DNA from: Phycisphaerales bacterium UBA2266
GTDB taxonomy: Bacteria > Planctomycetota > Phycisphaerae > Sedimentisphaerales > Anaerobacaceae
DNA: 56,041 nt
NCBI GenBank assembly: GCA_002347125.1
Contig: DDXG01000263.1
Location: 1-56,041, forward strand
Reading direction: 5' to 3'
Shown: positions 11,927-37,629 of the stretch, in pieces
How positions within the stretch are numbered: position 1 is the first letter of the stretch
Layout: each line of letters opens with the position of its first letter
Notes under the pieces: generated by a model
What the model saw: only the letters and a program-made list of their open reading frames with translations
What the model was told of the DNA's origin: nothing
Database searches by the model: none
Program-made: the position numbers and the translations under genes

Positions 11927-11938
11927 GCTGAGGCAACC

Positions 11939-22238: not shown

Positions 22239-22858
22239 CGACGAACGACGCGGCGGAATTTGAGAATACGACTCAGCGGTGTGAGCTGCTGTGTGAACTT
22301 GGCGACTGCTATACGTCGGTGGGGCGATACGCAGACGCGCGCCGCTGTTATGAACAGGCGGCGACGGTGGGCCCGGATGAGGCCGGTCCGTACGTGGGCC
22401 TGGGGGTGGTGGCGCTGCAGGAGAACGACGTGGAGAACGCGGAGTTGTCTTTCCGCGTGGCCTGTCGGCTGGACGGCGGCTGCGCGAAGGCCTATGCGGG
22501 CCTTGCCATGATCGCCCAGCAGCGCAACAGGGGTCGGCAGGCCTTCGATCTCTATCTGAAGTCGTTGGAGCAGGATGTGGACAATCTGACGGCGCTGCTG
22601 GGACTGTTCCAGGTCTCGTGCATGATGGGGTCGTTTGCGGAGGTAATCCGGCACCTGGAGGCGTATCTGCGGGTGCATCCGGGTGATACGTCGGTGATGT
22701 TCTGCCTGGCGACCTTATACACGAGAGACTCCCGGTTGAGCGAGGCAAGAAGGATGCTGCGCGATATTGTGGCCGCAGACCCTGAGAACCAGGATGCGGC
22801 GAACCTGCTGGAGGAGGTGGAGCGTGGCCTGAACAGCCGGGCTTCGGCGACGACATAG
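22229..22858 (+). CDS. Stand-alone TPR-repeat protein
   Basis: Repeated TPR units are visible (LGDCYTSVGRYADARRCYEQAATVGPDEAGPYVGLGVVALQENDVENAELSFRVACRLD...AYAGLAMIAQQ...). The start overlaps the upstream stop by 10 nt. Confidence 0.8.
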   Translation: MDVTTNDAAEFENTTQRCELLCELGDCYTSVGRYADARRCYEQAATVGPDEAGPYVGLGVVALQENDVENAELSFRVACRLDGGCAKAYAGLAMIAQQRNRGRQAFDLYLKSLEQDVDNLTALLGLFQVSCMMGSFAEVIRHLEAYLRVHPGDTSVMFCLATLYTRDSRLSEARRMLRDIVAADPENQDAANLLEEVERGLNSRASATT

Positions 22859-23182
22859 ATGAATCCGTACCTTGACGACAGTCGGATAGAGCAGGACCTG
22901 GACCGGCTTGAGGTCTGTCTGGGGGAACAGATACGTCTGGCCCGAGGGGGCGAGACGGCGAGGCTTGAGGCCCTGTGCCAGGACAGCGGCGAGATCATCC
23001 GGCGGCTCGTTCAATGGGGGGTCATGGACAGCGAGTTGTTCCGGCGACGGAGCGGGCGGCTGGAGCGGTTGTACGGTGAACTGACACTGGCGGTCGGTTG
23101 CGAGCTTTCGCAAGCGGCCACTGGTTTGAAAGAAGTGCGCAGAGCCAGGAAGACGCTGCGGGCATATAAGAGCCGCGTTTGA
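22859..23182 (+). CDS. Small helical hypothetical protein (107 aa)
   Basis: The ATG directly abuts the upstream TAG (22856-22858). The protein is Leu/Arg/Glu-rich and predicted helical. I recognised no family. Confidence 0.55.
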   Translation: MNPYLDDSRIEQDLDRLEVCLGEQIRLARGGETARLEALCQDSGEIIRRLVQWGVMDSELFRRRSGRLERLYGELTLAVGCELSQAATGLKEVRRARKTLRAYKSRV

Positions 23183-23322: not shown

Positions 23323-24372
23323 ATGTCGAATACAGCTTGGTGCAGGCCGGTCATGATCATTGCCGAATCGGGGGTGAACCACAATGGCTGCGTGGAGACG
23401 GCATGCCGAATGATCGACGTTGCGGCCGATTGCGGGGCCGACGCGGTGAAGTTCCAGACGTTCGAGCCGGAGCGGCTGGTCAGCCGGTTCGCGCCCAAGG
23501 CGGCGTATCAACAACGGCATACGGCGGCCGATGAGTCCCAATTGCAGATGATAGAGCGCTTGCGTCTGTCGGCGGAGGACCATCGGCGGCTCTTGGCACG
23601 CTGTCGCCGGCGCGGCATCGTGTTCATGTCGTCGGCATTTGATCTTGAGAGCATCGATGTGCTGGTCGGATTGGGTCTGGAGACCTTCAAGGTGCCTTCC
23701 GGAGAGATCACGGATGATCCATACCTTCGCAAGATCGGGGCACTGGGGCGTCGGGTGATTCTATCGACCGGGATGGCGGATATGGACGAGATCGGCCGGG
23801 CCCTGGAGATTCTGACGGCGGCGGGTACAGAGAGGGATTCGATCACGGTGCTCCAGTGCAACACGGAGTATCCGACGCCCATGCGGGATGTCAACCTGCG
23901 GGCGATGCAGACGATTCGAGAGGCGTTCGGCGTGGCGGTCGGCTATAGCGACCATACGGAGGGGATAGAGGTGGCGATTGCGGCGGTGGCGATGGGGGCG
24001 ACGGTTATCGAGAAGCACTTTACGCTGGACAGGACGATGGCCGGGCCGGACCACAGTGCCTCGGTCGAGCCGGAGCAATTGCGGGCTTTGGCGGCGGCCG
24101 TGCGGAATGTCGAGCTGGCGATGGGCGACGGGATCAAACGGCCTTCGCCTTCGGAACGGCGGAACCGGGCCGTGGCGAGAAAGAGCGTCGTGGCGGCGGT
24201 TAATATACCGGCCGGTTCGGTCATTGCCCCGGAGATGCTCGCGGTCAAACGCCCGGGCACGGGCGTGCCGCCGGGCGACTTGGAGATGCTGATCGGTTCA
24301 AGGACCCGGCGGTCCATCGATCACGACGAGGTGATTACCTGGCAGGCGGTCGAGCGGAGCGTACTGGTATGA
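23323..24372 (+). CDS. neuB: Nonulosonic acid synthase, NeuB/LegI/PseI family (with C-terminal SAF domain)
   Basis: IIAESGVNHNG...ADAVKFQTF...FMSSAFD...FKVPSGEITD...ILSTGM...VLQCNTEYPTP...VGYSDHTEG, followed by the SAF-type C-terminus. The start could be ATG 23323 or TTG 23311. Confidence 0.9.
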   Translation: MSNTAWCRPVMIIAESGVNHNGCVETACRMIDVAADCGADAVKFQTFEPERLVSRFAPKAAYQQRHTAADESQLQMIERLRLSAEDHRRLLARCRRRGIVFMSSAFDLESIDVLVGLGLETFKVPSGEITDDPYLRKIGALGRRVILSTGMADMDEIGRALEILTAAGTERDSITVLQCNTEYPTPMRDVNLRAMQTIREAFGVAVGYSDHTEGIEVAIAAVAMGATVIEKHFTLDRTMAGPDHSASVEPEQLRALAAAVRNVELAMGDGIKRPSPSERRNRAVARKSVVAAVNIPAGSVIAPEMLAVKRPGTGVPPGDLEMLIGSRTRRSIDHDEVITWQAVERSVLV

Positions 24373-25517
24373 TTCGGCGGGTCTGTGTAATTACAGGCAC
24401 TCGGGCCGATTATGGCATCCTCGCCCCCGTGATGAAGGCCATCCGCGGTGAGCCGGGGTTTGAGCTGCAGATTGTTGCGACGTGTATGCACATGATGGAT
24501 GAGTTCGGGCGGACGGTCGACCTGATTGAACAGGACGGCTTTGAGGTGACTGAGACATTGGATGTCTCCTACGACTTGGACGGCCCTCTGGCACAAGTGC
24601 GGTCGGTGGGGCAGGCCCTGACGGGATTGGCGGAGTGCTTCAACAGGCTCGACCCGGCTATCGTGCTGGTGTTGGGCGACCGGGGCGAGATGCTGGCCGG
24701 CGCGACGGCCGCCAACTATTTGAGGGTCGCCGTGGCTCACGTCCACGGCGGGGAGGTCTCCGGGCACATCGACGGTGTATTGCGGCACGCCATTACCAAG
24801 TTGTCGCATCTGCACTTCTGTGCGACGGCGGCGGCCCGGCGGCGGATTCTGGACCTCGGTGAGGAGCCGTGGCGGGTCTTTCTAACGGGGGCCCCGGCCT
24901 TGGACCGGATCCTGCGGGCCGATTACACGGCGCGCGAGGAGCTTGCGAGTCGGTACGGGTTGGACCCGCAGCGGCCTCTGATCGTGGTTCTTCAGCACCC
25001 GGTCTCGACACAGGTTGAGCAGGCGGCGGCACAGATGGAAGCGACGCTGGAGGCGGTGTTGGCTTGCGAGGTACCCGCGTGGATCATCTACCCGAACGCG
25101 GACGCCGGGGGCCGGGCGATGATTGAGGTCATACGGCGATACGAAGATCGGCCGCTGAGTGCGACATTCAAGAACATCCCGCATAGGGACTACCTGGGTC
25201 TGCTGAGGGTGGCGTCGGTGCTTGTGGGCAACAGTTCAAGCGGCATCATCGAGGCGCCTTCTTTTGGGCTGCCTGTTGTCAACGTCGGTTCACGGCAACA
25301 GGGACGGGAGCGTGCGGGGAACGTCATTGATGTGCCATATGACACGGCGGCGATTGCCGGAGCTATCCACAAAGCTCTGTACGACACCGCCTTTCAAGCC
25401 GGCGCCGCGGTCCGCAACAACCCTTACGGCGACGGCACGGCGAGCGAGGCGATTGTACAGGCGCTGAAGACGGTCCCGTGCGACTCGACGTTGTTGGACA
25501 AGCGGATCATGTATTGA
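24369..25517 (+). CDS. neuC: UDP-N-acetylglucosamine 2-epimerase (hydrolysing), NeuC/LegG family
   Basis: VCVITGTRADYGILAPVMKAI...VLVLGDRGEMLAGATAA...AHVHGGEVSG...RHAITKLSHLHF. An ATGA overlap joins it to neuB. Confidence 0.9.
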   Translation: MIRRVCVITGTRADYGILAPVMKAIRGEPGFELQIVATCMHMMDEFGRTVDLIEQDGFEVTETLDVSYDLDGPLAQVRSVGQALTGLAECFNRLDPAIVLVLGDRGEMLAGATAANYLRVAVAHVHGGEVSGHIDGVLRHAITKLSHLHFCATAAARRRILDLGEEPWRVFLTGAPALDRILRADYTAREELASRYGLDPQRPLIVVLQHPVSTQVEQAAAQMEATLEAVLACEVPAWIIYPNADAGGRAMIEVIRRYEDRPLSATFKNIPHRDYLGLLRVASVLVGNSSSGIIEAPSFGLPVVNVGSRQQGRERAGNVIDVPYDTAAIAGAIHKALYDTAFQAGAAVRNNPYGDGTASEAIVQALKTVPCDSTLLDKRIMY

Positions 25518-25518
25518 G

Positions 25519-26169
25519 ATGTCTCAGGGACTGGTACTTATCTTCGGGGCCGGAGGGCACGGGAAGGTTGTGCTGGACATCCTGCGCAACGCCGCCGTCG
25601 AAGTGGCGGGGTTCCTCGATGAGGACGTCCGCAAAGAAGGGGCCACCCTCGGCGGGCTGAAGATACTCGGCGGCTGGGATTACCTGGATAGCCACCCGGG
25701 TTCGACGGTCGCCCTTGGCATCGGCAACAACCGCGTCCGCGCCCGACTTGCCGCAGAGTTGACGGGTGCCGGGCACCTGCTTACGCCGGCGATTCACCGC
25801 CGTGCAATCGTCTGTGACGATGTGCTTATAGGGCCCGGTGCCGTGGTCATGCCGGGGGCTGTGGTCAATACCGGCTCGACTATCGAGACGGGGTGCGTTG
25901 TCAACACGGGTGCGACCGTCGATCATGATTGCCGGCTGGCGGAGTTTTCGCAAGTGTGGCCGGGGGCCCATCTGGCCGGAGCGGTTACAGTGGGCGCCGG
26001 CTCCTACGTGGGAACGGGCGCGGCCGTCATACCGAATGTCACTATCGGCTCCAACGTCATGATCGGCGCCGGGGCCGCCGTTGTAAACGACCTGCCCGAC
26101 GACGCCGTGGCCGTTGGTGTTCCCGCTCGAATCATCAGGATGCAGACATGGCGCGACAGAGAGATATAA
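25519..26169 (+). CDS. Hexapeptide-repeat sugar N-acetyltransferase (NeuD/PglD/LegH family)
   Basis: The N-terminal Rossmann-like segment is LVLIFGAGGHGKVVLDIL. The C-terminal left-handed beta-helix repeats are IGPGAVVMPGAVVNTGSTIETGCVVNTGATVDHDCRLAEFSQVWPGAHLAG. Confidence 0.85.
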   Translation: MSQGLVLIFGAGGHGKVVLDILRNAAVEVAGFLDEDVRKEGATLGGLKILGGWDYLDSHPGSTVALGIGNNRVRARLAAELTGAGHLLTPAIHRRAIVCDDVLIGPGAVVMPGAVVNTGSTIETGCVVNTGATVDHDCRLAEFSQVWPGAHLAGAVTVGAGSYVGTGAAVIPNVTIGSNVMIGAGAAVVNDLPDDAVAVGVPARIIRMQTWRDREI

Positions 26170-27605
26170 GAGAACTGCTGGTGGGAGAAGACTTGTCGAT
26201 CAAAAAAGTCATGCAGATCATCGACCGCACGGCGCTGAACATCGCCTTTGTCGTGGACAGGGACTGCCGGCTCATCGGGGCTGTCAGCGACGGCGACATC
26301 CGACGTGCGATCCTTCGCGGCTGCGACGTCGGCACCGCGGTGAAGGAGGTGATGAACGGCGAGCCGGTCTTCCTGCACGAACACCAGCTTGCCAATCGAT
26401 ATCTTGTCACGGCGGCGGTTAAGAAGTTGCGGGCGGGTGGCGGCGGCTGCCCGCCGATACCGGTCGTTGACGCCGAGTGCCGGCCGGTTCAACTGGCGGA
26501 TTTCCGCGAACTGACGCGTGTGACGGCGATGTCCGACGACGGACCCAAGCGAGACAACCGCGTGCTTGTGGTGGGCGGCGCGGGCTTCCTCGGGTCGGTC
26601 CTGGTGGGTCGATTGCTGCAGAAGGGCTACACCGTCCGCGTCCTGGACAGTCTTCTGTATGGCCGGCAGTCCATTGAGGCATTCATCGAGAACAGTCGGT
26701 TTGAGCCGTGTGAGGGGGACATGCGGGACATTTCGGTCCTGGCCGGCGCGCTCAAACAGGTCGGTGCCGTGGTCAACCTGGCGGCCATCGTCGGAGACCC
26801 GGCGTGCAAGGCCAGTCCCTCGACGACCATCGAGACCAACTACCTGGCCAACAAGGTCTTGGCGGAGGCCTGCAAGTACAATCAGATCAACCGGTTTATC
26901 TTCGCCTCGACGTGCAGCGTCTATGGGGCCAGCCGGGAGGTGGTGGATGAGACATCCGACTTGCATCCCCTGTCGTTGTACACGCGGTCGAAGATTCATT
27001 CGGAGGAGGGCATTCTGAGCCTGGAGGATGAGAACTTCGCCCCGACGATCCTCCGCATGGCGACGCTGTACGGCTATTCGCCGCGGATGCGGTTCGACCT
27101 GGTGGTCAATACGATGGTCAAGGATGCATTCAGCACGGGACGGATCACGATCCACGGCGGCGGGACTCAGTGGCGGCCGCTGCTGGAGGTTTCGGACGCG
27201 GCCGAGGCATACATCCTGTGTTTGGAGGCGCCGCTCGAACGGATCAAGGGTGAAATCTTCAACCTCGGGGCGGAGAAACAGAACTACCAGATCCTGGACA
27301 TCGCGGCGAAGGTCCGCAGGCACCTGCCGGGTGCCGAGTTGCACTTCGCCGGCGAGATGTTCGACGCACGAGACTATTCTGTGTGCTTCAAGAAGATTCG
27401 GCGGCAACTGAATTTTCGTCCGCGAAAGGGGCTGAACTCGGCCATTATCGAGATCAAGCGGGCCCTGCACCGGGACATCGCCGACGTCGACGACGATCGC
27501 TACTACAACGTCAGGCGCATACAGGATGTTGGGGTCTACGCCCGGCCGCGGGCAGCCGAATACGCGACGGCAGGCGCTGCATCCGTTGACGGGCAGGGCA
27601 CCTGA
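26148..27605 (+). CDS. CBS-pair domain fused to an extended-SDR NAD-dependent sugar dehydratase/epimerase (LegB/PglF-like role)
   Basis: I moved the start to ATG 26148, since the listed 25929 extension is an Arg-rich overlap with the acetyltransferase gene. CBS region: IAFVVDRDCRLIGAVSDGDIRRAILRG. SDR region: VLVVGGAGFLGSVLVGRLLQKGYTV and the catalytic YTRSK. Confidence 0.85.
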   Translation: MARQRDIRELLVGEDLSIKKVMQIIDRTALNIAFVVDRDCRLIGAVSDGDIRRAILRGCDVGTAVKEVMNGEPVFLHEHQLANRYLVTAAVKKLRAGGGGCPPIPVVDAECRPVQLADFRELTRVTAMSDDGPKRDNRVLVVGGAGFLGSVLVGRLLQKGYTVRVLDSLLYGRQSIEAFIENSRFEPCEGDMRDISVLAGALKQVGAVVNLAAIVGDPACKASPSTTIETNYLANKVLAEACKYNQINRFIFASTCSVYGASREVVDETSDLHPLSLYTRSKIHSEEGILSLEDENFAPTILRMATLYGYSPRMRFDLVVNTMVKDAFSTGRITIHGGGTQWRPLLEVSDAAEAYILCLEAPLERIKGEIFNLGAEKQNYQILDIAAKVRRHLPGAELHFAGEMFDARDYSVCFKKIRRQLNFRPRKGLNSAIIEIKRALHRDIADVDDDRYYNVRRIQDVGVYARPRAAEYATAGAASVDGQGT

Positions 27606-27619
27606 CGGGACTACAGGAT

Positions 27620-28810
27620 ATGCATACAGCGGACATTCCAGCCATCCTGGGCGCATCACCGATGTTCGGCGAGATGTTGCCGATTACGCAGCCGACGCTT
27701 CCCGGCGTGGATCTGCTGATCGATGATCTGCGGAGGGTGTTTGACCGGCGGATGATTACAAATGCGGATTTGGTGCGGGAGTTCGAGCAGCGCGTGGCCA
27801 AGCATCTGGGCGTAGGCCATGTGGTGGCCGTAAGCAGTTGCACCAGCGGCCTGATGCTTGTATTACGGGCCCTGGGCTGCGAGGGCGAGGTGATTATGCC
27901 GTCATTTACGTTCTATGCAACGGGCCACGCGGCACTGTGGAACGGTCTGACGCCTGTGTTTGCGGACTGCGACCGCCGAACGGCCAATATCGACCCGCGG
28001 GCCGCGGCCTCGGCGATCACGTCGCGGACCTGCGCTATTCTCGCAGTGCACGTCTTCGGCAACCCGGCCGACACCGATGCGCTGCAGGGCATCGCCGACC
28101 GGCATCATCTGGCCCTGGTCTATGATGCAGCCCACGGCCTTGGCGCCCGGCGGGGCGGGGCCCGGCTGGGCGGCCAGGGCACGGCGTCATCATTCAGCCT
28201 CAGTCCGACGAAACTCATCACGGCGGGAGAGGGGGGGCTTGTGACGACCCAAGATGGGGAGTTGGCAAGGCGGATTCGTATCGGCCGCAACTATGGCGAT
28301 GCGGGGGCCTATGACTGCGAGTTCCTTGGCCTCAGTGCCCGCATGCCGGAATTCAGCGCGCTGCTGGGTCTGCGGTGCATGGAGGACCTTGATGGCAACG
28401 TCCGGCGCCGGCACCGGTTGGCGCAGGTCTACATCGAGCGTCTGTCTCGGTTGCCGGGTGTGTCGTTTCAGGAGATTGCCGCGGCGGATACGACGAGCTA
28501 CAAAGACTTGTCCGTTCATATCGACGCCGACGCGTTCGGTTTGGGCCGCGACGGTCTCTGCCGGTCGTTGGCGGCCGAGAATATCATGACAAAGAAGTAC
28601 TTCTGCCCCCCGCTGCACCACCAGAGGCTGTTCCAGCGGTTTCACGATGCGCGGCGGCCTCTGCCGAACACCGAGTACCTCAGCTACAACAGTCTGTCGT
28701 TGCCGCTATTCTCGCATATGGCAGAAGAGGCGGCTCACAAGGTCTGCGACGCTGTTGAGCGGATCCATCGCCATGCCGGCCGCATCGCCACAATGGGAAC
28801 CACGCCATGA
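27620..28810 (+). CDS. DegT/DnrJ/EryC1/StrS-family PLP sugar aminotransferase (LegC/PglE-like)
   Basis: SCTSGLMLVLRAL...DAAHGLGA...SFSLSPTKLITAGEGG, with the Schiff-base Lys retained. The RBS is AGGA. Confidence 0.9.
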   Translation: MHTADIPAILGASPMFGEMLPITQPTLPGVDLLIDDLRRVFDRRMITNADLVREFEQRVAKHLGVGHVVAVSSCTSGLMLVLRALGCEGEVIMPSFTFYATGHAALWNGLTPVFADCDRRTANIDPRAAASAITSRTCAILAVHVFGNPADTDALQGIADRHHLALVYDAAHGLGARRGGARLGGQGTASSFSLSPTKLITAGEGGLVTTQDGELARRIRIGRNYGDAGAYDCEFLGLSARMPEFSALLGLRCMEDLDGNVRRRHRLAQVYIERLSRLPGVSFQEIAAADTTSYKDLSVHIDADAFGLGRDGLCRSLAAENIMTKKYFCPPLHHQRLFQRFHDARRPLPNTEYLSYNSLSLPLFSHMAEEAAHKVCDAVERIHRHAGRIATMGTTP

Positions 28811-30891
28811 ACACAGGACAGCCGACGCTTCGCGTGTTTCTCTGCGACATGGTGCACAACTACCTTGGCGCGGGGTCGTACATGTTCCCGTTGAACATCG
28901 GTTACCTGGCCGCCTACGCCCGCCGGCAGCTCGGCGACGGGGTGGAGATTCGGCTGTTCAAGTACCCGGATGCGCTGTTGCGGGCCTTGGAATCCGCGAG
29001 CCCGGACGTCGTTGGCTTCGGCAATTACACATGGAACGCCGATCTCAACAACTGCCTGGCCGACCATGTGCGCGGCCTTTGGCCGCGAACACTGATTGTC
29101 TTCGGCGGGCCGAACATCAACTACAGCGACCGGGGCGTTACCGAGTTCTTCCTGTCCCATCAGGCGGCGGACTTCTACATTCCGTTCCAGGGCGAGAGGC
29201 CGCTGGCGCACCTGCTGGCGCGTTTTATGGACGGTGGCGGCGACCGCGAGCGGCTCACGGGCCGCGTTATGGAAGGAGCCTACGCCTACGACGCCGGGGC
29301 CGGTGTTGTGTTGCGGGGCGAGATTCCGCCGCGCATCAGGCAGCCGGATGACATCCCATCGCCTTACCTGACGGGCCTGCTCGACGAGTTCTTCGAATAC
29401 CCGCTGATTCCGATTGTCGAAACGAACCGCGGTTGCCCGTATCAGTGCACTTTCTGTGCCCAGGGGATCTCCTCACATCATCAGATCGACTACTTCAGCA
29501 TGGTTCGGGTGCGGGCCGAGCTGGACTACATCGCGGCGCACGTCAAGCACACCAATATCCTGAACCTGGCCGACAGCAACTTCGGCATCATCGACCGGGA
29601 CATGGATATTGCCCGGCATATTGCCCAGTTGACCCGCACGACGGGCTATCCGCGGCGCTGCAACACAAACTGGGCGAAAAACCAGCCCAAGATATTCCGG
29701 ATCGCGGAGATTCTGGACAACGTGAACCTCGTGGTGTCACTGCAATCGCTCGACGAAGGTGTTCTGGCGAAGGTCAAGCGGCGCAACATCCGCATGGGTG
29801 TATTCAAGGACATTGTAGAGCGTACCAACGCCCTGGGCGCCCAGTCTGGCACGGAGATCATTTTGGGCTTGCCCGGCGAGACCCGTGACAGCCACGTGCG
29901 GACGCTGCGGCAACTGTTTGACTGGGGTGTCTCGTGTATCATCTGCTACAACGGTCTCGTGCTGGACGGCACGGAGCTGGCCCGGCTCAAGGACGAGGGG
30001 GAATTCCGGTGCCGGACCCGTTATCGGCTGATCGACAGTTCGTTCGGCCAGTATGGCCCAATTACGAGTTTCGAGGCCGAGCAGGGCATCATGGCAACGG
30101 ACGCCATGACCGAGGAAGAACTGCTGGGTTCTCGCCCAGTGCACTGGCTTATTCAGTTCCTTTGGAACTACCGCTTCTACTACGACCTGCTTAAGTACGT
30201 GCAGATACACGGTGTGAATCCCCTGGACTTCATTCTGCGTCTGATTGAGGACGCCGACAAGGCGGCCCCGGCGGTGGTCCGACGGCTCTTCGAGGAGTTC
30301 AAACGCCAGGCCCGGGCCGAGTGGTTCGACAGCGTTGAGGACCTGCGGGCCCACTATATACAGGCGGAACCATTTCAGCGTCTGGGGCGGGGGATGCACG
30401 GCAAGATGAACGGCGCGTACATCTTCCGGGTCCTGCTGGAGGCCAAGGGGCCGTTCGAACGCTACATGTTCGAGACGGCGTGCCGATGTCTGCCGCTGTC
30501 GGCCGTCCATAGAGGCATTTTGCGTCAGATCATCGAGCAACTCAGTGCCGCCGTGATCGACTTCAATGGCTGTTGGGACGAGATCGAGCAGCCTCGGCTG
30601 CTGACCGGCCGCTTCGATCTGCCGGCATGGCGGGCCTCTCGCTATGACAGCACCGTCTTCAAGTACCTTAAACCGCGGCCCTGTGCGTGGCGCATCGAGC
30701 TGGGCGAGGACCAACGCCGGGTCCTCAAGCAACTGCTGCGGCAGTACGACCATCCGAACAAGAACGTCACCCTGCGAAAGATGAGCGAGTTCATTTCGGT
30801 TCGCGAGTTACTCTATCGGTTCGAACCGTGTGCGGCGCCGCACACTGGGCCTCACGCGAGGGTTGGCCGGTCGGCTGTGCTGTGCCGCTGA
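28807..30891 (+). CDS. Cobalamin-binding-domain (class B) radical SAM enzyme, 694 aa
   Basis: The N-terminal B12-binding-like region is RVFLCDMVHNY...PDVVGFGNYTWN. The radical SAM cluster motif is ETNRGCPYQCTFCAQG (CxxxCxxC). Confidence 0.8.
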   Translation: MNTGQPTLRVFLCDMVHNYLGAGSYMFPLNIGYLAAYARRQLGDGVEIRLFKYPDALLRALESASPDVVGFGNYTWNADLNNCLADHVRGLWPRTLIVFGGPNINYSDRGVTEFFLSHQAADFYIPFQGERPLAHLLARFMDGGGDRERLTGRVMEGAYAYDAGAGVVLRGEIPPRIRQPDDIPSPYLTGLLDEFFEYPLIPIVETNRGCPYQCTFCAQGISSHHQIDYFSMVRVRAELDYIAAHVKHTNILNLADSNFGIIDRDMDIARHIAQLTRTTGYPRRCNTNWAKNQPKIFRIAEILDNVNLVVSLQSLDEGVLAKVKRRNIRMGVFKDIVERTNALGAQSGTEIILGLPGETRDSHVRTLRQLFDWGVSCIICYNGLVLDGTELARLKDEGEFRCRTRYRLIDSSFGQYGPITSFEAEQGIMATDAMTEEELLGSRPVHWLIQFLWNYRFYYDLLKYVQIHGVNPLDFILRLIEDADKAAPAVVRRLFEEFKRQARAEWFDSVEDLRAHYIQAEPFQRLGRGMHGKMNGAYIFRVLLEAKGPFERYMFETACRCLPLSAVHRGILRQIIEQLSAAVIDFNGCWDEIEQPRLLTGRFDLPAWRASRYDSTVFKYLKPRPCAWRIELGEDQRRVLKQLLRQYDHPNKNVTLRKMSEFISVRELLYRFEPCAAPHTGPHARVGRSAVLCR

Positions 30892-30924
30892 TATGTCAAA
30901 ACGAATCCTGCAAGAGGCCATGCG

Positions 30925-32097
30925 ATGAAGGATTACCTCAAGGAGAAGACACGGTTCGTGATGAAGACCGAGACGCTGATGGGCGACGGCATCGCCAAGG
31001 AATTGCCGGATGTGCTGGCGGCCTGGGAATGGTCGCGGGTGGGTCTGGTTGTGGACGGTGGTCTCTACCGGCACAACGACTACGCCCGGCAGGTTGCGGA
31101 GACCCTCCGACAGCGGCTGGAGCACGTGACGATGCTGATCGCCGACATGCCCGAGCCGACGTATGATTATCTTGACCAGACCCGGGGTGTGTTTGCGGAT
31201 CTGGACCTGGACTGTTTCGTGGGCATCGGGGGCGGCAGCACGCTGGATATTGCCAAGGGGTTGGCGACGCTCATGACCAACGAGGGCGCGGCCGTAAGCT
31301 ACCGGGGTTTCGGCAAGGTGAAGAACACGCCGCTGCCCGTTGTGGCCCTACCGTCCACGGCAGGGACAGGTAGTGAAGTGACTCCGTATGCGGTCTTCAT
31401 CGACACACAGCAGCAGTGGAAGTTCGGCATCAACAGCGAGCACAACTATCCGAAGCTGGCGCTGTACGATCCGCGTCTGCTGGACAGTTGCCCGGACCGA
31501 ATCTACGCATCGGCGGGAATGGACGCCATGACCCATACGTTGGAGAGCTTCGTCGCCAGAAATGCGACGGTGGTCTCGCGGATGTTCTCGAAACAGGCGT
31601 TCAAGCTGCTATTCCCAAACCTCAAGAGAGCGGCCGGCGGCGAACGGTCAACGGCGGTGAAGCTGAACCTGTTGCTTGGAGCCGGCTGCGCGGGGGTGGC
31701 CCTGATGAACAGCGGGGCCGGACCGGCCGGCGCACTAAGCTACCCTCTGGGCGTCTATTACGATGTGCCTCACGGACTGGCGGGTTCGGTCTTTCTGCCG
31801 GCGGTCATCCGGTACAACGTCGAAAACGGATACACGGACTACGCCGAACTGTACGACCTGGTCTGTGACGAGGCCTGCGCGACGGCGGCGGAGAAATCGT
31901 CTCGTTTCGCCGAGGCCATCGAGCAACTCAGCGACGAACTGGGCATCCCGACGGAATTGGGCGGCTTCGGCGTCAAGACGGACGAGGATTCCCGGCGGAT
32001 CATCGACCATTCCATGCAGCTCAAGGCGGCGTTTGAACAGAATCCCATCACTTTCGGCCAATCGGAGGTTGAGAGAATTGTCTATGCACTTAGCTGA
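30925..32097 (+). CDS. Iron-containing (group III) alcohol dehydrogenase
   Basis: VGIGGGSTLDIAKG, ALPSTAGTGSEVT and His-rich metal-site regions (DAMTHTLES, VPHGLA). Confidence 0.85.
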   Translation: MKDYLKEKTRFVMKTETLMGDGIAKELPDVLAAWEWSRVGLVVDGGLYRHNDYARQVAETLRQRLEHVTMLIADMPEPTYDYLDQTRGVFADLDLDCFVGIGGGSTLDIAKGLATLMTNEGAAVSYRGFGKVKNTPLPVVALPSTAGTGSEVTPYAVFIDTQQQWKFGINSEHNYPKLALYDPRLLDSCPDRIYASAGMDAMTHTLESFVARNATVVSRMFSKQAFKLLFPNLKRAAGGERSTAVKLNLLLGAGCAGVALMNSGAGPAGALSYPLGVYYDVPHGLAGSVFLPAVIRYNVENGYTDYAELYDLVCDEACATAAEKSSRFAEAIEQLSDELGIPTELGGFGVKTDEDSRRIIDHSMQLKAAFEQNPITFGQSEVERIVYALS

Positions 32098-33412
32098 AAA
32101 GAAGACCGTATCGCTGAGCTTCAGGCAGTCCGAGTATGTCTATGATCGGGCGCTGGAGGTGATCCCGATGGGCGCCTCGACGTTCAGCCGAAACCCTCAC
32201 CTGTTTGTGATCGGTGCATCGCCGCTCTATATCGACTCGGCGCGGGGCTGCCGCGTCCGGGACGTGGACGGCAACGAGTTCATAGATTACTCGATGGCGC
32301 TGAGCATCATCTTTCTGGGCTACGCCGAACCGCGGGTCAGTGCCGCGGCCAAGGCCGCCATTGACGACGGGCTCATCTTCACCCTCTCGTGCCCGCAGGA
32401 GTCGATTCTGGCGCGCACGATCGTCGATCTCGTCCCCTGCGCCGAGATGGTCCGTTTCTGCAAGAACGGCTCGGACTCATGCGAGGGGGCGGTTCGCCTG
32501 GCCCGCAGACATACGGGCAAGCTCAAGGTCATGACGGTAGGCGGGTACCACGGTTTCCATGACTGGTACATTGCCTCGACGGCCCGCCGAGAAGGTGTTC
32601 CGCCGGCGATGGCCGAGTGGGTGCTGCCGCACGCCTACAACGATATTGACGCCGTCGAACGGACGATCCGCACACAGGCCGGGGAGATCGCCGCGCTGAT
32701 TATGGAGCCGGTGATCAACATTGAGCCACGGCCGGGATTCCTTGAGAGGATTCGGGAGTTGACGTTGCGGCACAACATCGTACTGATCTTCGACGAGATG
32801 AAGACGGGCTTTCGCCTGTCGATCGGCGGGGCCCAGGCGTTCTTTGGCGTCGTGCCGGACCTGGCGGTCTTCGGCAAGGCGCTGTCCAACGGTTTTCCGC
32901 TGAGCGCCCTGGTGGGCAAGCGGGAACTGATGCGGCAGTTCGAGGATGAGAATTGTTTTCTGTCGGCCTCCTATGCCACGGAGAAGGCGTCCATCGCGGC
33001 GGCCCTCAAGACGCTTGAGATACTGGAGGGTGAGCCCGTGCTCGAACATGTCTGGTCGATGGGCGAGCGTCTCAAGGTCGGGATTGTGGAACGGATAGAG
33101 AGGCACCATCTCACAGCCAGCCTGAAGATTATCGGTTTTGCGCCGATGACGCATTTTGTCATCTCCGAGACGGCAGGATTCACCGTTGCCCAGATACGGT
33201 CCTTCATCCAGCAGGAGTCCGTCCGTCGGGGCGTCCTGTTCGTAGGCTACAACCATACCAGCTACGCGCACGGCCCCGCCGACATCGAGTACACGCTCGA
33301 CGTCTACGACGAGGTCTTCGCCCTGCTGAGTCGGCGTCTGGCGGATGGCATGCTGGCTGACCGCATCGAGGGCAGGACCATCAGTTCATTCGGAGTCAGG
33401 GGCATATCATGA
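32084..33412 (+). CDS. Class III PLP aminotransferase (glutamate-1-semialdehyde aminomutase-like)
   Basis: I moved the start to ATG 32084, a 14-nt overlap with the upstream gene. Motifs: GASTFSRNP, ALIMEPV, LIFDEMKTGFRLS (PLP Lys). Confidence 0.85.
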   Translation: MHLAEKKTVSLSFRQSEYVYDRALEVIPMGASTFSRNPHLFVIGASPLYIDSARGCRVRDVDGNEFIDYSMALSIIFLGYAEPRVSAAAKAAIDDGLIFTLSCPQESILARTIVDLVPCAEMVRFCKNGSDSCEGAVRLARRHTGKLKVMTVGGYHGFHDWYIASTARREGVPPAMAEWVLPHAYNDIDAVERTIRTQAGEIAALIMEPVINIEPRPGFLERIRELTLRHNIVLIFDEMKTGFRLSIGGAQAFFGVVPDLAVFGKALSNGFPLSALVGKRELMRQFEDENCFLSASYATEKASIAAALKTLEILEGEPVLEHVWSMGERLKVGIVERIERHHLTASLKIIGFAPMTHFVISETAGFTVAQIRSFIQQESVRRGVLFVGYNHTSYAHGPADIEYTLDVYDEVFALLSRRLADGMLADRIEGRTISSFGVRGIS

Positions 33413-34422
33413 AGACGCTCGTCATCGGGTACGGTTCCATCGGTAGACGCCACGCCCGTAACGCCCGCCGCCTGGGGCATGAGGTGGTCCTGTTACGGCA
33501 CGGTGGCCATGATCCGAATCCCGACGGCCTGAGGGAGTATTATGACTTTGACGAAGTCCTCGCATCCGAGGGGTGCATTGACGCGGCGGTGGTTTGCAGC
33601 CCCACATCCGGCCACCTCGACGATGTTGCAGGCTTGGTCGAACGAGGGATACCGTTTCTGTTGGAGAAGCCGCCGGCCGTCGATCTGTCCGCCACGCGGC
33701 GGATGCGGCGGCTGTTGGAGCGGCCGGGCGCTCCACGATACGATATTGCCTTCAATATGCGCTACTACCCCCCATTGCGGTTCATTCGCCATCGTCTGTC
33801 CGATATGGGGCGGGTGTACTGTGCCCAGGTATGGGCTGGGGCGTATCTACCCGATTGGCGCCCAGGGGTGGACTATAGAACGACCAGCAGCGCCCGTGCG
33901 GAACTCGGCGGCGGCGTCCATGTGGAGCTGGTGCATGAGATCGACTACATCCTGTGGTTTTTCGGTATGCCCGTGAGCGTCTTCGCGACGGCGCGGCGAA
34001 TCAGCGATCTGGAGATCACCACGCAGGACCTCTGTTCGGCCGTGCTGCTCTACGAGGACGGCATGACCGTGGAGTTGCACCTGGACTACCTGTCGCGCAA
34101 GCGCATCCGAGGCTGCCGCGTCATTGCCCGCGATGCGACGCTCGAATGGGATATGGGCGCCGGGCAGATCAGTTGTGTCACGGACGGCTCGCAATGCGGG
34201 GATTTGCAGTTCTCGCTCGATCCCGGTTACGACTTCAACAACACCTATGTTGAGGAACTGGCGCATTTCACGCGGGTAGTGGACGAGGGGGCGGCGCCGG
34301 CCGTTGATATTCACACCGCCCTCAACGCTATGATGGTCCTTGACGCGATCAATGCCTCATCACTGAGCGGACGATGCGTGGGTCTTGCGGAGATACAGGT
34401 CGAGCAGGAGGTCCCGGCGTGA
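33409..34422 (+). CDS. Gfo/Idh/MocA-family NAD(P) oxidoreductase
   Basis: The N-terminal Rossmann segment is MKTLVIGYGSIGRRHARN, followed by LLEKPPA. An ATGA overlap joins it to the upstream gene. Confidence 0.8.
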   Translation: MKTLVIGYGSIGRRHARNARRLGHEVVLLRHGGHDPNPDGLREYYDFDEVLASEGCIDAAVVCSPTSGHLDDVAGLVERGIPFLLEKPPAVDLSATRRMRRLLERPGAPRYDIAFNMRYYPPLRFIRHRLSDMGRVYCAQVWAGAYLPDWRPGVDYRTTSSARAELGGGVHVELVHEIDYILWFFGMPVSVFATARRISDLEITTQDLCSAVLLYEDGMTVELHLDYLSRKRIRGCRVIARDATLEWDMGAGQISCVTDGSQCGDLQFSLDPGYDFNNTYVEELAHFTRVVDEGAAPAVDIHTALNAMMVLDAINASSLSGRCVGLAEIQVEQEVPA

Positions 34423-35162
34423 AACGATGGGTCATCATCTCGGGGGGTTGCGGCGTTCTGGGGCAGAGCTTCGCACGGGCACTTGCGGAAGACGGCTACG
34501 AGCCGCTGCTGCTGGATATCGCAGGCCCGAAGAGCGACAAGCCCCTGGTCGGCGAGTTTCTGCGTTGCGACATCACGGAGCCGTCCGATGTGATGCGGCT
34601 CGAAGGGTATATCGGTGCGCCGGATGCCGAGGTCCACGGGCTGATCAACAATGCCTCGTGCCAGCCGCCGGGTTTCGCCCATGAGCTGGAAGACTACTCG
34701 GTGGAGTGCTACCGCAGGGTTCTGGATGTCAACTTGGCAGGGAGTTTTCTCCTGACGCGCGCGGTTGTGCCGTACATGCAGCGTCAGCGATTCGGCAGCA
34801 TCATCAACATCGGTTCGATCCAGGGGGTGGTGGCGCCCACGTTTGAGATATATGCGGGCACCGGCATCACCTCTCCGCTGGCATACGCGGTCGCCAAGGC
34901 GGGGATGATTCACTTCGCCAAGTGGGTGGCGGCCCGGTACGGCAATTATAACGTCCGGTGCAATGCCGTCTCGCCCGGCGGCGTCAACGATCATCAGAAG
35001 GGCGGCGGCGAGTTCCTCGATGTGTACTGTTCCAGGACACCGCTGAACCGCATGGTCCGTTCGGCGGAGGTGGCGGAACTCGTTCGTTTCCTTATCAGCA
35101 ACCGGTCGGCGTACATCACCGGTCAGAACATTGTGATCGATGGAGGCTGGACGGCCCACTGA
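34419..35162 (+). CDS. Short-chain dehydrogenase/reductase (PtmA-like flagellin-modification oxidoreductase position)
   Basis: GTG 34419 forms a GTGA overlap with the upstream stop. Motifs: VIISGGCGVLGQSFARAL, NNAS, and the catalytic YAVAKAG. The gene sits directly upstream of the cytidylyltransferase. Confidence 0.8.
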   Translation: MKRWVIISGGCGVLGQSFARALAEDGYEPLLLDIAGPKSDKPLVGEFLRCDITEPSDVMRLEGYIGAPDAEVHGLINNASCQPPGFAHELEDYSVECYRRVLDVNLAGSFLLTRAVVPYMQRQRFGSIINIGSIQGVVAPTFEIYAGTGITSPLAYAVAKAGMIHFAKWVAARYGNYNVRCNAVSPGGVNDHQKGGGEFLDVYCSRTPLNRMVRSAEVAELVRFLISNRSAYITGQNIVIDGGWTAH

Positions 35163-35186
35163 GCCACGAGCACCCGCCGCTGCACC

Positions 35187-35918
35187 ATGTACAGGAACCG
35201 ACGAATCCTTGGTCTGATCCCTGCCCGGGGCGGGAGCAAAGGATTGCCCGGAAAGAACATCCGACCCCTGTTAGGCAAACCCCTGATCGTCTGGACGGTT
35301 GAACAGGCTTGTGCGGCCGTGTATCTGGATCGTGTGATCGTCTCGACCGACGACGACCAGATCGCACGGATTGCCGCGGCGGCGGGCGCCGAGGCGCCGT
35401 TTGTCCGCCCGAACGACTTGGCCGCCGATACCTCGCTGATTATTGACACGGTAATCCATGTCCTCGACAGGCTCGCGCAGGACGGGGAGGCATTCAACTA
35501 TGTGGCCCTGCTTGAACCGACTTCACCGTTGCGGGAAGACGGCGATATCGACCGGGCCGTCACCACGCTCATCAACAATGAAGAGCGGGCCGACAGTCTG
35601 ATGTACATCGGCAAGGTGGTCCTTCAGAACCCGCTCATGGCCAAACGCATTGACACCGAGGGCTACCTGCATCCGTTTCTTGATGCATCGACCGACGGGC
35701 GGCGGCAGGAACTGCCCGACGCCTACATCCCCTACGGCGTATGCTATCTGTCGAAGACATCGGCCTTGCGGAAGCACCGCACGTTCTATCAGCCGAGAAC
35801 GCTGGCCCTGGTTACGCAGCGCTGGCAGAACTATGAGATCGATGATATCTGGGATTTCGTCTGCATTGAAGCTGTCATGCAGCGGATCGTCCACGACCAG
35901 CAGCGGGTAAGCCCATGA
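35187..35918 (+). CDS. neuA: Acylneuraminate/nonulosonate cytidylyltransferase (CMP-sugar synthetase, NeuA/LegF/PtmB family)
   Basis: ILGLIPARGGSKGLPGKNIRPLLGKPLIVWT...VSTDD...LEPTSPLR. Confidence 0.9.
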   Translation: MYRNRRILGLIPARGGSKGLPGKNIRPLLGKPLIVWTVEQACAAVYLDRVIVSTDDDQIARIAAAAGAEAPFVRPNDLAADTSLIIDTVIHVLDRLAQDGEAFNYVALLEPTSPLREDGDIDRAVTTLINNEERADSLMYIGKVVLQNPLMAKRIDTEGYLHPFLDASTDGRRQELPDAYIPYGVCYLSKTSALRKHRTFYQPRTLALVTQRWQNYEIDDIWDFVCIEAVMQRIVHDQQRVSP

Positions 35919-36958
35919 CCACGAAGATGCACGACCTCAAAGACCTCGACCACGCCGTATCCAGCAAAGGCGATCCGTACGAGACCCTGGCGGTGCACCT
36001 GGGGCCGGCGGTCCATGCGTATCGCCGCCGGTGGGACTTGGCGGGCAGGGGGGAACTGTTGCCCGAGTTTCCATTGCACCTGAATATCGAGATTGTGTAC
36101 GGGTGCAATCTGCGGTGCGAATTCTGCGCGCACAGCCGTCCCGACCGCAATATCAAGAACCGGACCTGCCGAGGCAAGCGGCTTTCGTTTGAACAATACA
36201 AGCGAATTATCGACGAGGGTCGGCAGCGCGATCTGTGCTCGGTGGCGCTCAATGGCTTCAACGAGCCGCTGCTCCAGAGGGACATCGCCGACTACGTCCG
36301 TTATGCGGCCGACGCGGGGATCCTGGAGGTCTCCCTGCATACGAACGCGCTGCTTCTGAACGAGTCGATGAGCCGGTTCCTGCTGGACTGCGGGCTCAAT
36401 ATTATCATGTTCTCGATCGACGCCTTCAGCCGCGAGACCTATTCGCAAATCCGCAGGGGTGGCGACTACGACACCGTTGTGAGCAACATAACCACCTTCC
36501 TCGAACTGAAGGGCCGCCTGGGACTGACATTGCCGTTGACGCGGGCCTCTTTTGTCAAGACGAAGGTCAACGCCCATGAAATGGAAGACTTCGTTGCGTT
36601 CTGGGACCGGAGAACCGACTACGTTATGCTCCAGGGTTTCTGTAATATGTTCGTCGACGAAGATGGCTACGACGCTGTCGAAGACCGATACCGCCTCGAC
36701 GACCAGCCGTTCGAGACATGTCATCTGCCATGGCAGCGGCTGAGCATCGCGGCCGACGGGGCGGTATTGCCCTGTTGCTCCTACTTCGGCCTGAACATGC
36801 CGGTCGGCCACATTGAAGAAGGCAGCCTCTACGACATCTGGCACGGTCCGCGGATGCGAGAGCTTCGCGGGACCGTCAACACGCAACGGCGGCCGGCGTC
36901 TTGCGACCGGTGCCGGCGCTCCGCCGTCGGCCGCAACTATCGGCCGAATCCATCATGA
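35915..36958 (+). CDS. Radical SAM enzyme with a C-terminal SPASM/twitch-type Cys cluster
   Basis: IEIVYGCNLRCEFCAH (CxxxCxxC). The C-terminal Cys cluster is CHLPWQRLSIAADGAVLPCCSY...CDRC. ATGA overlaps occur at both ends. Confidence 0.8.
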   Translation: MTTKMHDLKDLDHAVSSKGDPYETLAVHLGPAVHAYRRRWDLAGRGELLPEFPLHLNIEIVYGCNLRCEFCAHSRPDRNIKNRTCRGKRLSFEQYKRIIDEGRQRDLCSVALNGFNEPLLQRDIADYVRYAADAGILEVSLHTNALLLNESMSRFLLDCGLNIIMFSIDAFSRETYSQIRRGGDYDTVVSNITTFLELKGRLGLTLPLTRASFVKTKVNAHEMEDFVAFWDRRTDYVMLQGFCNMFVDEDGYDAVEDRYRLDDQPFETCHLPWQRLSIAADGAVLPCCSYFGLNMPVGHIEEGSLYDIWHGPRMRELRGTVNTQRRPASCDRCRRSAVGRNYRPNPS

Positions 36959-37629
36959 CGGCTGTTCTGACAAAGTACTTCGAGACATCTCTCGGCCGCT
37001 ACTTCTTCGATTATCCCAAACGGCACGCAGGGCGGATTCATGAGCGGTTTGTGGCTGGGGGTGATTTGTTCTTCAGCGACCTGGCTGCGAAACACCCCGC
37101 CCATGGGAGCCGCCGGCCGGACGACAGGGAACTGGTCGAGATGATCCAGCTTGATCCGTGCCTGGAAGCTGTTCTGCTCTACCGTGTGGAGCGAAGTCTC
37201 TTTCTTGACGATCCGGACGACCCGCTGCTGCCGTATCTGGCGGGTCTGATGCGGCTCAAGACCGGGATCGAGTTGTATTACAGCACGGAGATCGGGCCGG
37301 GCCTGAACGTCATGCACGGCATGGGCGTCGTCGTGGGGCCCCGGTACAAGATTGGACGCAACTTCACCATCAACCACGGCGCGACCATCGGCCAAAGCGG
37401 GGCCGACGAGCCGGAGTCCATCATCATCGGTGACAATGTCCGCATCTTCGCCGGGGCCAAGGTCATCGGCCGCGTGCGGATCGGCGACAACGTGCATATC
37501 GGAGCCAACGCCGTGCTGATTGACGATGCCGAGTCCAATTCGGTCTATCTTGGCGTCCCCGCCAGAAAGGTCCGGGACTTGTATCACGATTTTGAAGTCG
37601 TTCCACCTCCCTTATCGGCGCCATTGTGA
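36955..37629 (+). CDS. Hexapeptide-repeat O-acetyltransferase (serine acetyltransferase/CysE-like)
   Basis: I moved the start to ATG 36955 (ATGA overlap). Motifs: LLYRVERSLF...GIELYYSTEIGPGLNVMHGMGVVVGP...IGDNVRIFAGAKVIGRVRIGDNVHIGANAV. Confidence 0.8.
   Translation: MTAVLTKYFETSLGRYFFDYPKRHAGRIHERFVAGGDLFFSDLAAKHPAHGSRRPDDRELVEMIQLDPCLEAVLLYRVERSLFLDDPDDPLLPYLAGLMRLKTGIELYYSTEIGPGLNVMHGMGVVVGPRYKIGRNFTINHGATIGQSGADEPESIIIGDNVRIFAGAKVIGRVRIGDNVHIGANAVLIDDAESNSVYLGVPARKVRDLYHDFEVVPPPLSAPL

Follow-up and report, generated by a model that had tools for sequence, protein, structure and literature searches.

A nonulosonic acid operon in a planctomycete flagellar island

We analyzed a stretch of 56,041 nucleotides from Phycisphaerales bacterium UBA2266 (contig DDXG01000263.1 of assembly GCA_002347125.1); this whole stretch is called the window. 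The window represents a flagellar island (G+C content, about 62%), and positions 23323-37629 contain an operon of sugar-biosynthesis genes. Our results support the conclusion that this operon encodes, as judged from its protein sequences, a nonulosonic acid pathway that belongs to the legionaminic and not to the pseudaminic lineage. What it makes is probably not plain legionaminic acid but a new sugar that carries more modifications. The genes are as follows, where a second number after a bit score is the cut-off of the model.

23323..24372, + strand: NeuB (NeuB and SAF domains), nonulosonic acid synthase of the LegI lineage (TIGR03569 and tree)
24369..25517, + strand: NeuC-family hydrolysing nucleoside diphosphate (NDP)-sugar 2-epimerase (TIGR03568, 421 bits vs 236)
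25519..26169, + strand: PglD/NeuD-type N-acetyltransferase (PglD_N and Hexapep; TIGR03570, 216 bits vs 161)
26148..27605, + strand: CBS pair plus extended short-chain dehydrogenase/reductase (SDR) of the NAD-epimerase/dehydratase fold (Pfam), here called CBS-SDR
27620..28810, + strand: DegT-family sugar aminotransferase (PF01041, 324 bits)
28807..30891, + strand: cobalamin-type (class B) radical SAM enzyme (PF02310 B12-binding and PF04055 Radical_SAM)
30925..32097, + strand: iron-dependent alcohol dehydrogenase (Fe-ADH), lactaldehyde-reductase-like (Fe-ADH and ADH_Fe_C)
32084..33412, + strand: class III aminotransferase, glutamate-1-semialdehyde aminomutase-like (PF00202, 160 bits), with its true start at the ATG at 32084
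33409..34422, + strand: Gfo/Idh/MocA oxidoreductase, PtmF homologue (Pfam)
34374..35162, + strand: classical SDR, PtmA homologue (adh_short_C2, 148 bits); its true start may be near 34419
35187..35918, + strand: cytidine monophosphate (CMP)-nonulosonate synthetase (CTP_transf_3; PF02348, 83 bits)
35915..36958, + strand: SPASM/twitch radical SAM enzyme (Radical_SAM and SPASM; CNLRCEFC at 36104-36127)
36955..37629, + strand: CysE/EpsC-like hexapeptide acyltransferase (Hexapep; EpsC model, 116 bits vs 150)

The genes are co-directional, intact open reading frames (ORFs), most of which overlap. Neighboring genes overlap at seven junctions, in four cases by 4 bp (ATGA), and no gap is longer than 33 bp. 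The last reading frame is open from position 36901, but the ATG at 36955, which overlaps the stop codon of the SPASM gene, is the likely start; this gene is kept in a relative (locus L002, see below). Searches with Pfam and NCBIfam models established that the genes listed in the original prediction are real, belong to the families stated there and lie on the + strand.

The synthase groups with LegI

Campylobacter jejuni has three NeuB paralogues whose functions have been assigned biochemically, and it served as our anchor. In its genome, the LegI locus was recognized as a NeuB followed by NeuC2, PtmE, PtmF, PtmB and PtmA. As further anchors from the same genome, NeuB1 adjoins a NeuC, and PseI lies on a contig with PseB and PseC. 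The NeuB in the window scores 467 bits with TIGR03569 (cut-off 400) and is 49.5% identical to C. jejuni LegI (365 bits), compared to 31% for PseI and 30% for NeuB1. In a tree of 92 rows, built by a quick search with support from the SH-like approximate likelihood ratio test (SH-aLRT), it falls in an 82-row clade that contains C. jejuni LegI (SH-aLRT 97), while PseI and NeuB1 are outside. Homologues with 60-64% identity to it are annotated by the Joint Genome Institute (JGI) as N,N'-diacetyllegionaminate synthase.

A pseudaminic pathway was considered and rejected. The PseI model gives 260 bits on this NeuB, short of its cut-off of 340, and the PseB model gives 34 bits on the CBS-SDR against a cut-off of 408. 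No PseG was found in the genome, where the best match to it scores only 22 bits. The prediction of a legionaminic rather than pseudaminic type is thus supported for the lineage of the pathway, and the phylogenetic placement of NeuB that had been proposed as a check puts it with LegI.

The SDR differs from known 4,6-dehydratases

The original prediction held that all six enzyme classes of a complete legionaminic pathway are present. The six families are indeed found, but the enzyme that was called a dehydratase is one only at the level of the superfamily. The LegB model (TIGR04180) gives 93 bits on the CBS-SDR, far from its cut-off of 475, and the GalE and RmlB models do no better. Thr255, Tyr278 and Lys282 are present, and the threonine is followed by Cys256-Ser257 (26913-26918). 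Known 4,6-dehydratases carry an acid/base pair at this position, namely Asp-Glu in RmlB, Ser-Glu in GDP-mannose dehydratase, and Asp-Lys in PglF, PseB and CDP-glucose dehydratase. The motif at this site is S-T-C-S in the CBS-SDR, as opposed to S-T-S-E in C. jejuni LegB, T-N-S in the C. jejuni protein Cj1427 and TDK in PseB. We conclude from these comparisons that the CBS-SDR is not a LegB orthologue and is without the catalytic dyad that known 4,6-dehydratases use for dehydration.

This difference extends beyond the window. The sequence ASTCSVYG is conserved at a level of at least 90% across 120 homologues of the CBS-SDR, which come from Omnitrophota, Margulisbacteria, candidate-phyla-radiation bacteria and DPANN archaea, and which have generic names only. 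An SDR with exactly STSEVYG, on the other hand, is present in 36 of 80 LegI-type loci from other species.

Among solved structures, PDB 6VO6 is closest to the CBS-SDR (142 bits, roughly 32% identity). We established indirectly that 6VO6 is Cj1427: it aligns over 309 residues (678 bits) with a C. jejuni protein whose gene adjoins homologues of hddA and hddC. Cj1427 is the C4-dehydrogenase of GDP-D-glycero-D-manno-heptose, and oxidizes C4 without dehydration (PMC10680097). Since Cys-Ser replaces the acid/base pair, the CBS-SDR may be expected to act like Cj1427 and to leave the 6-hydroxyl group in place. On the strength of the motif and this similarity, it is probably a C4-dehydrogenase of NDP-N-acetylhexosamine (NDP-HexNAc) that feeds the DegT aminotransferase. 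A retained 6-hydroxyl group would become the 9-hydroxyl group of the nonulosonic acid, and the product would therefore not be legionaminic acid in the strict sense (5,7-diamino-3,5,7,9-tetradeoxy-D-glycero-D-galacto-nonulosonic acid).

The early steps appear to come from a different lineage

The proposed phylogenetic check on NeuC gave a different result from that on NeuB. The window's NeuC lies outside a 30-row clade that holds C. jejuni LegG, and instead groups with the NeuC proteins of loci L003, L100, L101 and L102; C. jejuni NeuC1 also falls in this group, but on a long branch. According to this tree, it belongs to a NeuC lineage that travels with CBS-SDR cassettes. The proteins encoded beside it behave similarly. 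When compared to CBS-SDR cassettes of Omnitrophota and Margulisbacteria, the window's NeuC, PglD-type enzyme, SDR and DegT score 444, 225, 481 and 421 bits, respectively, whereas with ordinary legionaminic acid loci they reach at most about 310, 125, 87 and 176 bits. Because NeuB associates with ordinary LegI loci and these four with CBS-SDR cassettes, the operon looks, at the level of its sequences, like a mosaic of two lineages, in which a LegI-type synthase is combined with a different front end.

The DegT protein has the intact lysine that had been predicted, which is the pyridoxal phosphate (PLP) lysine Lys198 in an SPTK motif (28211-28213). None of the specific DegT models reaches its cut-off; DesI is the best (310 bits), followed by PseC (209 bits) and LegC (168 bits, cut-off 420). 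No equivalog model was passed by the CMP-synthetase either (PseF, 140 bits vs 206), which is 27% identical to C. jejuni LegF/PtmB.

A possible objection is that these genes form a sialic acid (Neu5Ac) cluster of NeuB, NeuC, NeuD and NeuA, and that the SDR and DegT proteins serve some other sugar. NeuB and NeuC do pass the NeuB_NnaB and NeuC_NnaA models, and the window's NeuC shares a clade with the long-branched NeuC1 of C. jejuni. However, NeuB is much closer to LegI than to NeuB1 in the identities given above, the PglD_N-type transferase is an amino-sugar N-acetyltransferase, and the block of NeuB, NeuC, PglD, SDR (with or without CBS) and DegT recurs as a unit across phyla. We therefore regard a Neu5Ac cluster as highly improbable.

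The additional genes form a conserved module

Between and after the core genes are enzymes that the original prediction described as insertions from outside the textbook pathway. The Gfo/Idh/MocA protein and the classical SDR are usual members of ptm loci, the class III aminotransferase is likewise not foreign to legionaminic acid loci, and several of the enzymes belong to a module rather than being scattered. The Gfo/Idh/MocA protein is a homologue of C. jejuni PtmF (79.5 bits by phmmer; 25% identity and 112 bits by tblastn), and roughly 10 of the 80 ordinary legionaminic acid loci combine a class III aminotransferase with a PtmA-like SDR and a CMP-transferase. The idea that the classical SDR and the cytidylyltransferase mirror the ptmA-ptmB pair is supported by the 31% identity of this SDR to C. 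jejuni PtmA. The PtmA model gives it 129 bits against 350.

The remaining additional enzymes can be characterized by their closest relatives. The B12-radical SAM enzyme contains CPYQCTFC (29434-29457) and scores 198 bits with a KedN5-family model, which is below the equivalog cut-off. In the PDB, it is most similar to TokK and CysS, two enzymes that methylate sp3 carbons and whose substrates carry pantetheine. It is thus a probable C-methyltransferase, as far as homology can indicate. The best NCBIfam model for the Fe-ADH is lactaldehyde reductase (207 bits, below the cut-off). The class III aminotransferase scores 349 bits with PRK06209 (cut-off 486), and its relatives in the PDB include the sugar C-6' aminotransferases 7LLD and 7LM0. 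The SPASM enzyme has weak PDB similarity to BtrN, BlsE and MoaA. We also considered whether the Fe-ADH, B12-radical SAM enzyme and cytidylyltransferase might make a phosphonate, as in fosfomycin synthesis. This was rejected, as there is no phosphoenolpyruvate (PEP) mutase in the genome, which is 95% complete.

We inspected the gene neighborhoods in which homologues of the CBS-SDR or the B12-radical SAM enzyme are encoded. L100, L104 and L121 each contain, as a unit, the block of Fe-ADH, class III aminotransferase, Gfo/Idh/MocA protein, SDR and CMP-transferase. In L120, a proteobacterial assembly with a PtmE-type front end, the B12-radical SAM gene and this block have exactly the order seen in the window. 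L105 (Nitrospirota) and L106 (GCA_964649725.1) bring together the Fe-ADH, B12-radical SAM, SPASM radical SAM, DegT and CMP-transferase genes, and in L106 the module and an unfused S-T-C-S SDR adjoin maf, flaF, flbT and flagellin genes. In L105, L106 and L119, the SPASM genes that neighbor the B12-radical SAM gene are 37-38% identical to the window's SPASM gene, and the window's Fe-ADH is 42-68% identical to the Fe-ADHs of eight other nonulosonic acid loci. Of seven further contexts sampled for the B12-radical SAM enzyme, six are nonulosonic acid loci. The B12-radical SAM enzyme, Fe-ADH, aminotransferase and SPASM enzyme are therefore a conserved module that is found in other phyla and tied to nonulosonic acids.

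Natural gene fusions point in the same direction. Protein P0295 (L103, 9001-12645) is a fusion of CMP-transferase, B12-radical SAM enzyme and NeuB with 1214 residues, P0305 (907 residues) joins a B12-radical SAM enzyme to a CMP-transferase, and L121 encodes at 10776-12530 a fusion of NeuB and CMP-transferase (584 residues). That the B12 enzyme is fused to the CMP-transferase and NeuB in some lineages is the strongest sign that the nonulosonate is its target, on which it perhaps acts in the form of the CMP ester.

These fusions bear on another explanation, in which the module assembles a small group (aminoalkyl or hydroxyalkyl, for example) as a separate substituent, perhaps bound to a carrier, and this group is then attached to a nonulosonic acid whose skeleton is unmodified. 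Such a role is brought to mind by genes that follow the second acetyltransferase:

37626..41603, + strand: E1 alpha-beta fusion, lipoyl-E2 and Sfp-type phosphopantetheinyl transferase (PPTase) (Pfam, NCBIfam)

The cluster had been predicted to end at 37629, but these genes are translationally coupled to the sugar operon and extend it, with 4-bp overlaps at 37626 and 39728, and more sugar genes lie beyond them up to the end of the window. Besides the presence of a PPTase with E1 and E2, an argument for the separate substituent is that the substrates of TokK and CysS carry pantetheine, and that pairs of Fe-ADH and aminotransferase interconvert small alcohols, aldehydes and amines. However, no carrier (PP-binding) domain was found in any Pfam scan, and the gaps between genes are too small for a carrier gene. 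The E1/E2/PPTase trio is absent from the other module loci that we examined, with L103 having a lone E1-type gene, and the fusions point to the sugar itself. The absence of PEP mutase also speaks against a phosphonate substituent. Given this evidence, we think it improbable that the module makes a separate substituent.

The type of SDR and the Fe-ADH also appear to be connected. Both an S-T-C-S SDR and the Fe-ADH are found in the window, L002, L003 (where the motif is S-S-C-S), L100, L101, L104, L106, L120 and L121. Wherever a sampled module locus yielded an SDR of this type, its motif is S-T-C-S (S-S-C-S in L003), whether or not CBS is fused to it. No Fe-ADH is present in the 80 LegI-type loci (L005-L084). 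Among 301 Omnitrophota genomes, the CBS-SDR occurs in five and a module-type Fe-ADH in four; both occur in two genomes, 5-6 kb apart on one contig, where about 0.07 would be expected by chance. It is important to consider that these loci were gathered with three different queries and are small, non-random samples that include kin, so we view the link between the S-T-C-S SDR and the Fe-ADH as suggestive.

The operon is set among flagellar genes

Upstream of the operon on the + strand are flgE, rod genes, flgA, flgH, flgI, flgN, flgK and flgL (Pfam). Those closest to the operon include the following:

15698..22858, + strand: flgK, flgL, TPR+GT4 gene, GT2+TPR gene and TPR gene (Pfam; same order in the relative L002)
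22859..23182, + strand: fliT-like flagellar chaperone gene, directly 5' of neuB (orthology to L002)

The 107-codon ORF at 22859..23182 has no Pfam match of its own. Its orthologue in L002 (107 amino acids) carries the Pfam FliT domain and matches the window's ORF at 54.7 bits. A fliT-like gene thus separates the glycosyltransferase genes from neuB and connects the sugar operon with the flagellar genes. In L002, whose proteins are 63-66% identical, all 19 of 19 genes from flgK to the second acetyltransferase occur in the same order. Such gene-for-gene conservation indicates that the arrangement is under selection and not due to chance.

No member of the Maf family was found anywhere in the genome assembly (402 contigs, 4.76 Mb), which contains a single NeuB-family gene and only one flagellin gene (contig C209, 52941-53357; about 270 residues, 16% Ser+Thr). 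The TPR-GT4 and GT2-TPR genes are candidate flagellin glycosyltransferases. The location of the operon, with flgK-flgL, TPR-glycosyltransferases and fliT upstream and the same arrangement in the relative, points to the use of the sugar in flagellin glycosylation, by TPR-glycosyltransferases rather than Maf.

The island is unusual for its lineage. In a sample of 151 genomes of the window's class, a NeuB-family gene is present in 84, yet the NeuB/LegI cut-off is reached in four. The B12 enzyme was found only in the genome of the window, and a full-length match to the CBS-SDR in none. Together with the observation that the nearest relatives of several genes are in other phyla, this distribution suggests that the island may have been acquired by transfer.

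Among public DNA data, the best match to the window comes from a hydrocarbon metagenome, possibly the sample from which the genome was obtained. Runs from landfill and sludge with a small share support no statement about habitat. Four RNA libraries (X8 and X12-X14), all from a single study of anaerobic digesters, yielded contigs with scattered pieces of most genes between 22859 and 41603, with 90-99% identity. A close relative thus lives in anaerobic digesters, and there is a hint that the operon is transcribed. Parts of the operon that are not covered by these contigs carry no meaning. An apparent joint of 775 bp (23459 to 24235), seen in two sets of RNA-library contigs with sides of 23 bases, was taken to be a chimera from other organisms.

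A second sugar pathway is located at 44319-52059, and resembles the C. jejuni genes for modification of capsular GDP-heptose. Its SDR (44319-45311) is 56% identical to an orthologue of the Cj1427 C4-dehydrogenase, and a GHMP kinase and a nucleotidyltransferase match the hddA- and hddC-like genes beside Cj1427 with 30% identity each. This region also holds an RmlC-like epimerase, a second DegT, a split transketolase and a second B12-radical SAM gene.

Proposed pathway and its alternatives

Based on these observations, we propose that a variant route encoded by the operon leads to a CMP-activated 5,7-diamino nonulosonic acid belonging to the legionaminic lineage, and that the sugar is then tailored by the module for use on flagellin. 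Our confidence in this proposal as a whole is slightly better than even. In a Phycisphaerae bacterium of anaerobic hydrocarbon or sludge habitats, the operon would be the sugar-supply half of a flagellin glycosylation island. By homology, the CBS-SDR would oxidize an NDP-HexNAc at C4, DegT would transaminate it, and the PglD-type enzyme would N-acetylate it. NeuC would then release and 2-epimerize the sugar, the LegI-type synthase would condense it with PEP, and the CMP-transferase would activate it.

The nucleotide of the starting sugar can be considered separately. The UDP-linked legionaminic route uses PglF-, PglE- and PglD-like enzymes, followed by NeuC, NeuB and NeuA. The only PtmE-like match in the window (51349-52023) is in the heptose sub-cluster and consists of the transferase domain alone; this marker of a GDP route was not found beside the core genes. 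Because no dedicated guanylyltransferase adjoins the core genes, a UDP-sugar start is plausible.

The later steps would depend on the terminal carbon. If the CBS-SDR does not remove the 6-hydroxyl group, the terminal hydroxymethyl group stays, and an alcohol dehydrogenase and a further aminotransferase can work there, an idea that fits the link between this SDR and the Fe-ADH. In gentamicin synthesis, GenK C-methylates a CH2OH carbon, after which GenQ performs an oxidation and GenB1, a class III aminotransferase of the glutamate-semialdehyde-aminomutase-like kind, acts on the sugar; in fosfomycin synthesis, Fom3, likewise a cobalamin radical SAM enzyme, C-methylates the CH2OH carbon of a CMP-linked hydroxyethyl group. 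In the order that we propose, the B12 enzyme would C-methylate the sugar, the Fe-ADH would oxidize it and the aminotransferase would transaminate it, possibly yielding a sugar with ten carbons and three amino groups. The module and the PtmF- and PtmA-like oxidoreductases would probably act on the CMP-sugar, and probably at its terminal carbon. Acyl groups would come from the second acetyltransferase and the E1/E2 unit, and the TPR-glycosyltransferases would attach the product to flagellin.

Several observations weigh against this proposal. The call of a dehydrogenase is based on a motif and about 32% identity to Cj1427, and the conserved cysteine, or another base in the fold, could support dehydration. 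The genome also encodes other dehydratase-like SDRs, e.g., a PseB/PglF-like gene of the T-D-K type on contig C296, though there is no Polysacc_synt_2 (T-D-K) dehydratase within the window. For NeuB, the window has the ordinary LegI type, which is known to use a 6-deoxy substrate, and the NeuBs of other CBS-SDR cassettes (L003, L100 and L101) are outside the LegI clade. L102 and L074 have an S-T-C-S SDR and, in the stretch seen, no Fe-ADH. As the roughly 10 loci with a class III aminotransferase and a PtmA-like SDR have an STSE-type LegB and no Fe-ADH, the role of these two enzymes need not involve the terminal carbon. The methylated site could be an N-acyl group, and the RNA-library contigs may reflect carry-over of DNA.

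Some of these points can be accommodated by ordinary synthesis of CMP-legionaminic acid. In that case, the CBS-SDR would be a true 4,6-dehydratase with odd residues, the product a 9-deoxy legionaminic acid, and the extra enzymes would remodel its N-acyl groups, e.g., from acetyl to propionyl or to an amino- or hydroxy-acyl chain. This is consistent with a NeuB inside the LegI clade, with the parallel between DegT, PglD, NeuC and CMP-transferase and LegC, LegH, LegG and LegF, and with DesI, an enzyme that acts on a 4-keto-6-deoxy sugar, being the best DegT model. Moreover, TokK, CysS and KedN5 relatives extend side-chain alkyl groups, and acyl-supplying E1/E2 genes lie downstream. However, the CBS-SDR has neither the Glu nor the Asp-Lys of the known types of 4,6-dehydratase, its LegB score is far too low, and the NeuC is not in the LegG clade. 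In addition, STSEVYG is kept in 36 LegI-type loci, while all Fe-ADH-module loci with such an SDR have S-T-C-S. We therefore see ordinary legionaminic acid synthesis as possible, though on the unlikely side.

Returning to the variant route, we can also offer a more specific version of it, which is tentative and which we consider rather unlikely. A 2026 preprint on Magnetospirillum gryphiswaldense reports the mass-spectrometric detection of CMP-activated ulosonic acids that give a ten-carbon marker fragment, without naming genes (bioRxiv 10.64898/2026.04.20.719630). In the SugarBase preprint, the nine- and ten-carbon marker fragments have m/z 297.09 and 311.10, respectively. The S-T-C-S SDR and the module may represent an undescribed branch of nonulosonic acid synthesis in which the terminal carbon is kept, C-methylated and aminated to give a ten-carbon tri-amino ulosonic acid. 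This branch would then be the missing genetic basis of the C10 sugars of M. gryphiswaldense, with such a sugar here decorating a planctomycete flagellum.

Nonulosonic acids on flagella and other surfaces govern motility, phage recognition and immune recognition, and mass-spectrometric surveys keep finding variants, including ten-carbon ones, for which genes are not known. The locus and its relatives bear on the question of whether an SDR family of wide occurrence takes the place of the textbook dehydratase, and they document flagellin-glycosylation genes in Planctomycetota with TPR-glycosyltransferases instead of Maf. L106 would be a good second system in which to study the module. In a literature search, we found no paper that links nonulosonic acids, radical SAM enzymes and flagellin, and no description of an extension of the carbon skeleton of sialic-acid-like sugars by a cobalamin radical SAM enzyme. 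The elements that are new here are the distinction between S-T-C-S and S-T-S-E SDRs and its connection with the Fe-ADH, the disagreement between NeuB and NeuC in their phylogenetic positions, and the setting in a flagellar island of a planctomycete.

Comparison with known systems

Among the closest known systems is the leg/ptm locus of C. jejuni. Both loci are linked to the flagellum and contain a LegI-type synthase, a NeuC-family epimerase, DegT and an N-acetyltransferase, and both have the trio of a PtmF-like Gfo/Idh/MocA protein, a PtmA-like SDR and a CMP-transferase. However, the SDR in the window has S-T-C-S where LegB has S-T-S-E, and the CBS pair is on this SDR, whereas in C. jejuni it is on PtmE. 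The window lacks a PtmE beside the core genes, its NeuC is of another clade, and there is no Maf. Moreover, the window adds the B12-radical SAM enzyme, the Fe-ADH, the class III aminotransferase, the SPASM enzyme and the E1/E2/PPTase genes.

Cj1427 is a useful comparison for the SDR alone. It shares the motifs AAxVGxPxCK and SPRMRxDLxVN with the CBS-SDR, and in both proteins the second residue after the catalytic threonine is Ser, not Glu. The two differ in that Cj1427 has T-N-S rather than T-C-S, lacks the CBS pair and uses a heptose as its substrate.

In Legionella pneumophila and Acinetobacter baumannii, legionaminic acid synthesis follows the UDP route. The window has a PglD-type acetyltransferase in common with these organisms, but not their Polysacc_synt_2 dehydratase of the T-D-K type.

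For the module, a parallel can be drawn with GenK, GenQ and GenB1, and with Fom3. In the window, the genes for a cobalamin radical SAM enzyme, an oxidoreductase and a class III aminotransferase are adjacent (28807-33412) and are located beside a CMP-transferase gene. This is an analogy of logic only: the nearest solved B12 enzymes are TokK and CysS rather than GenK or Fom3, and the oxidoreductase is an Fe-ADH and not a flavoenzyme.

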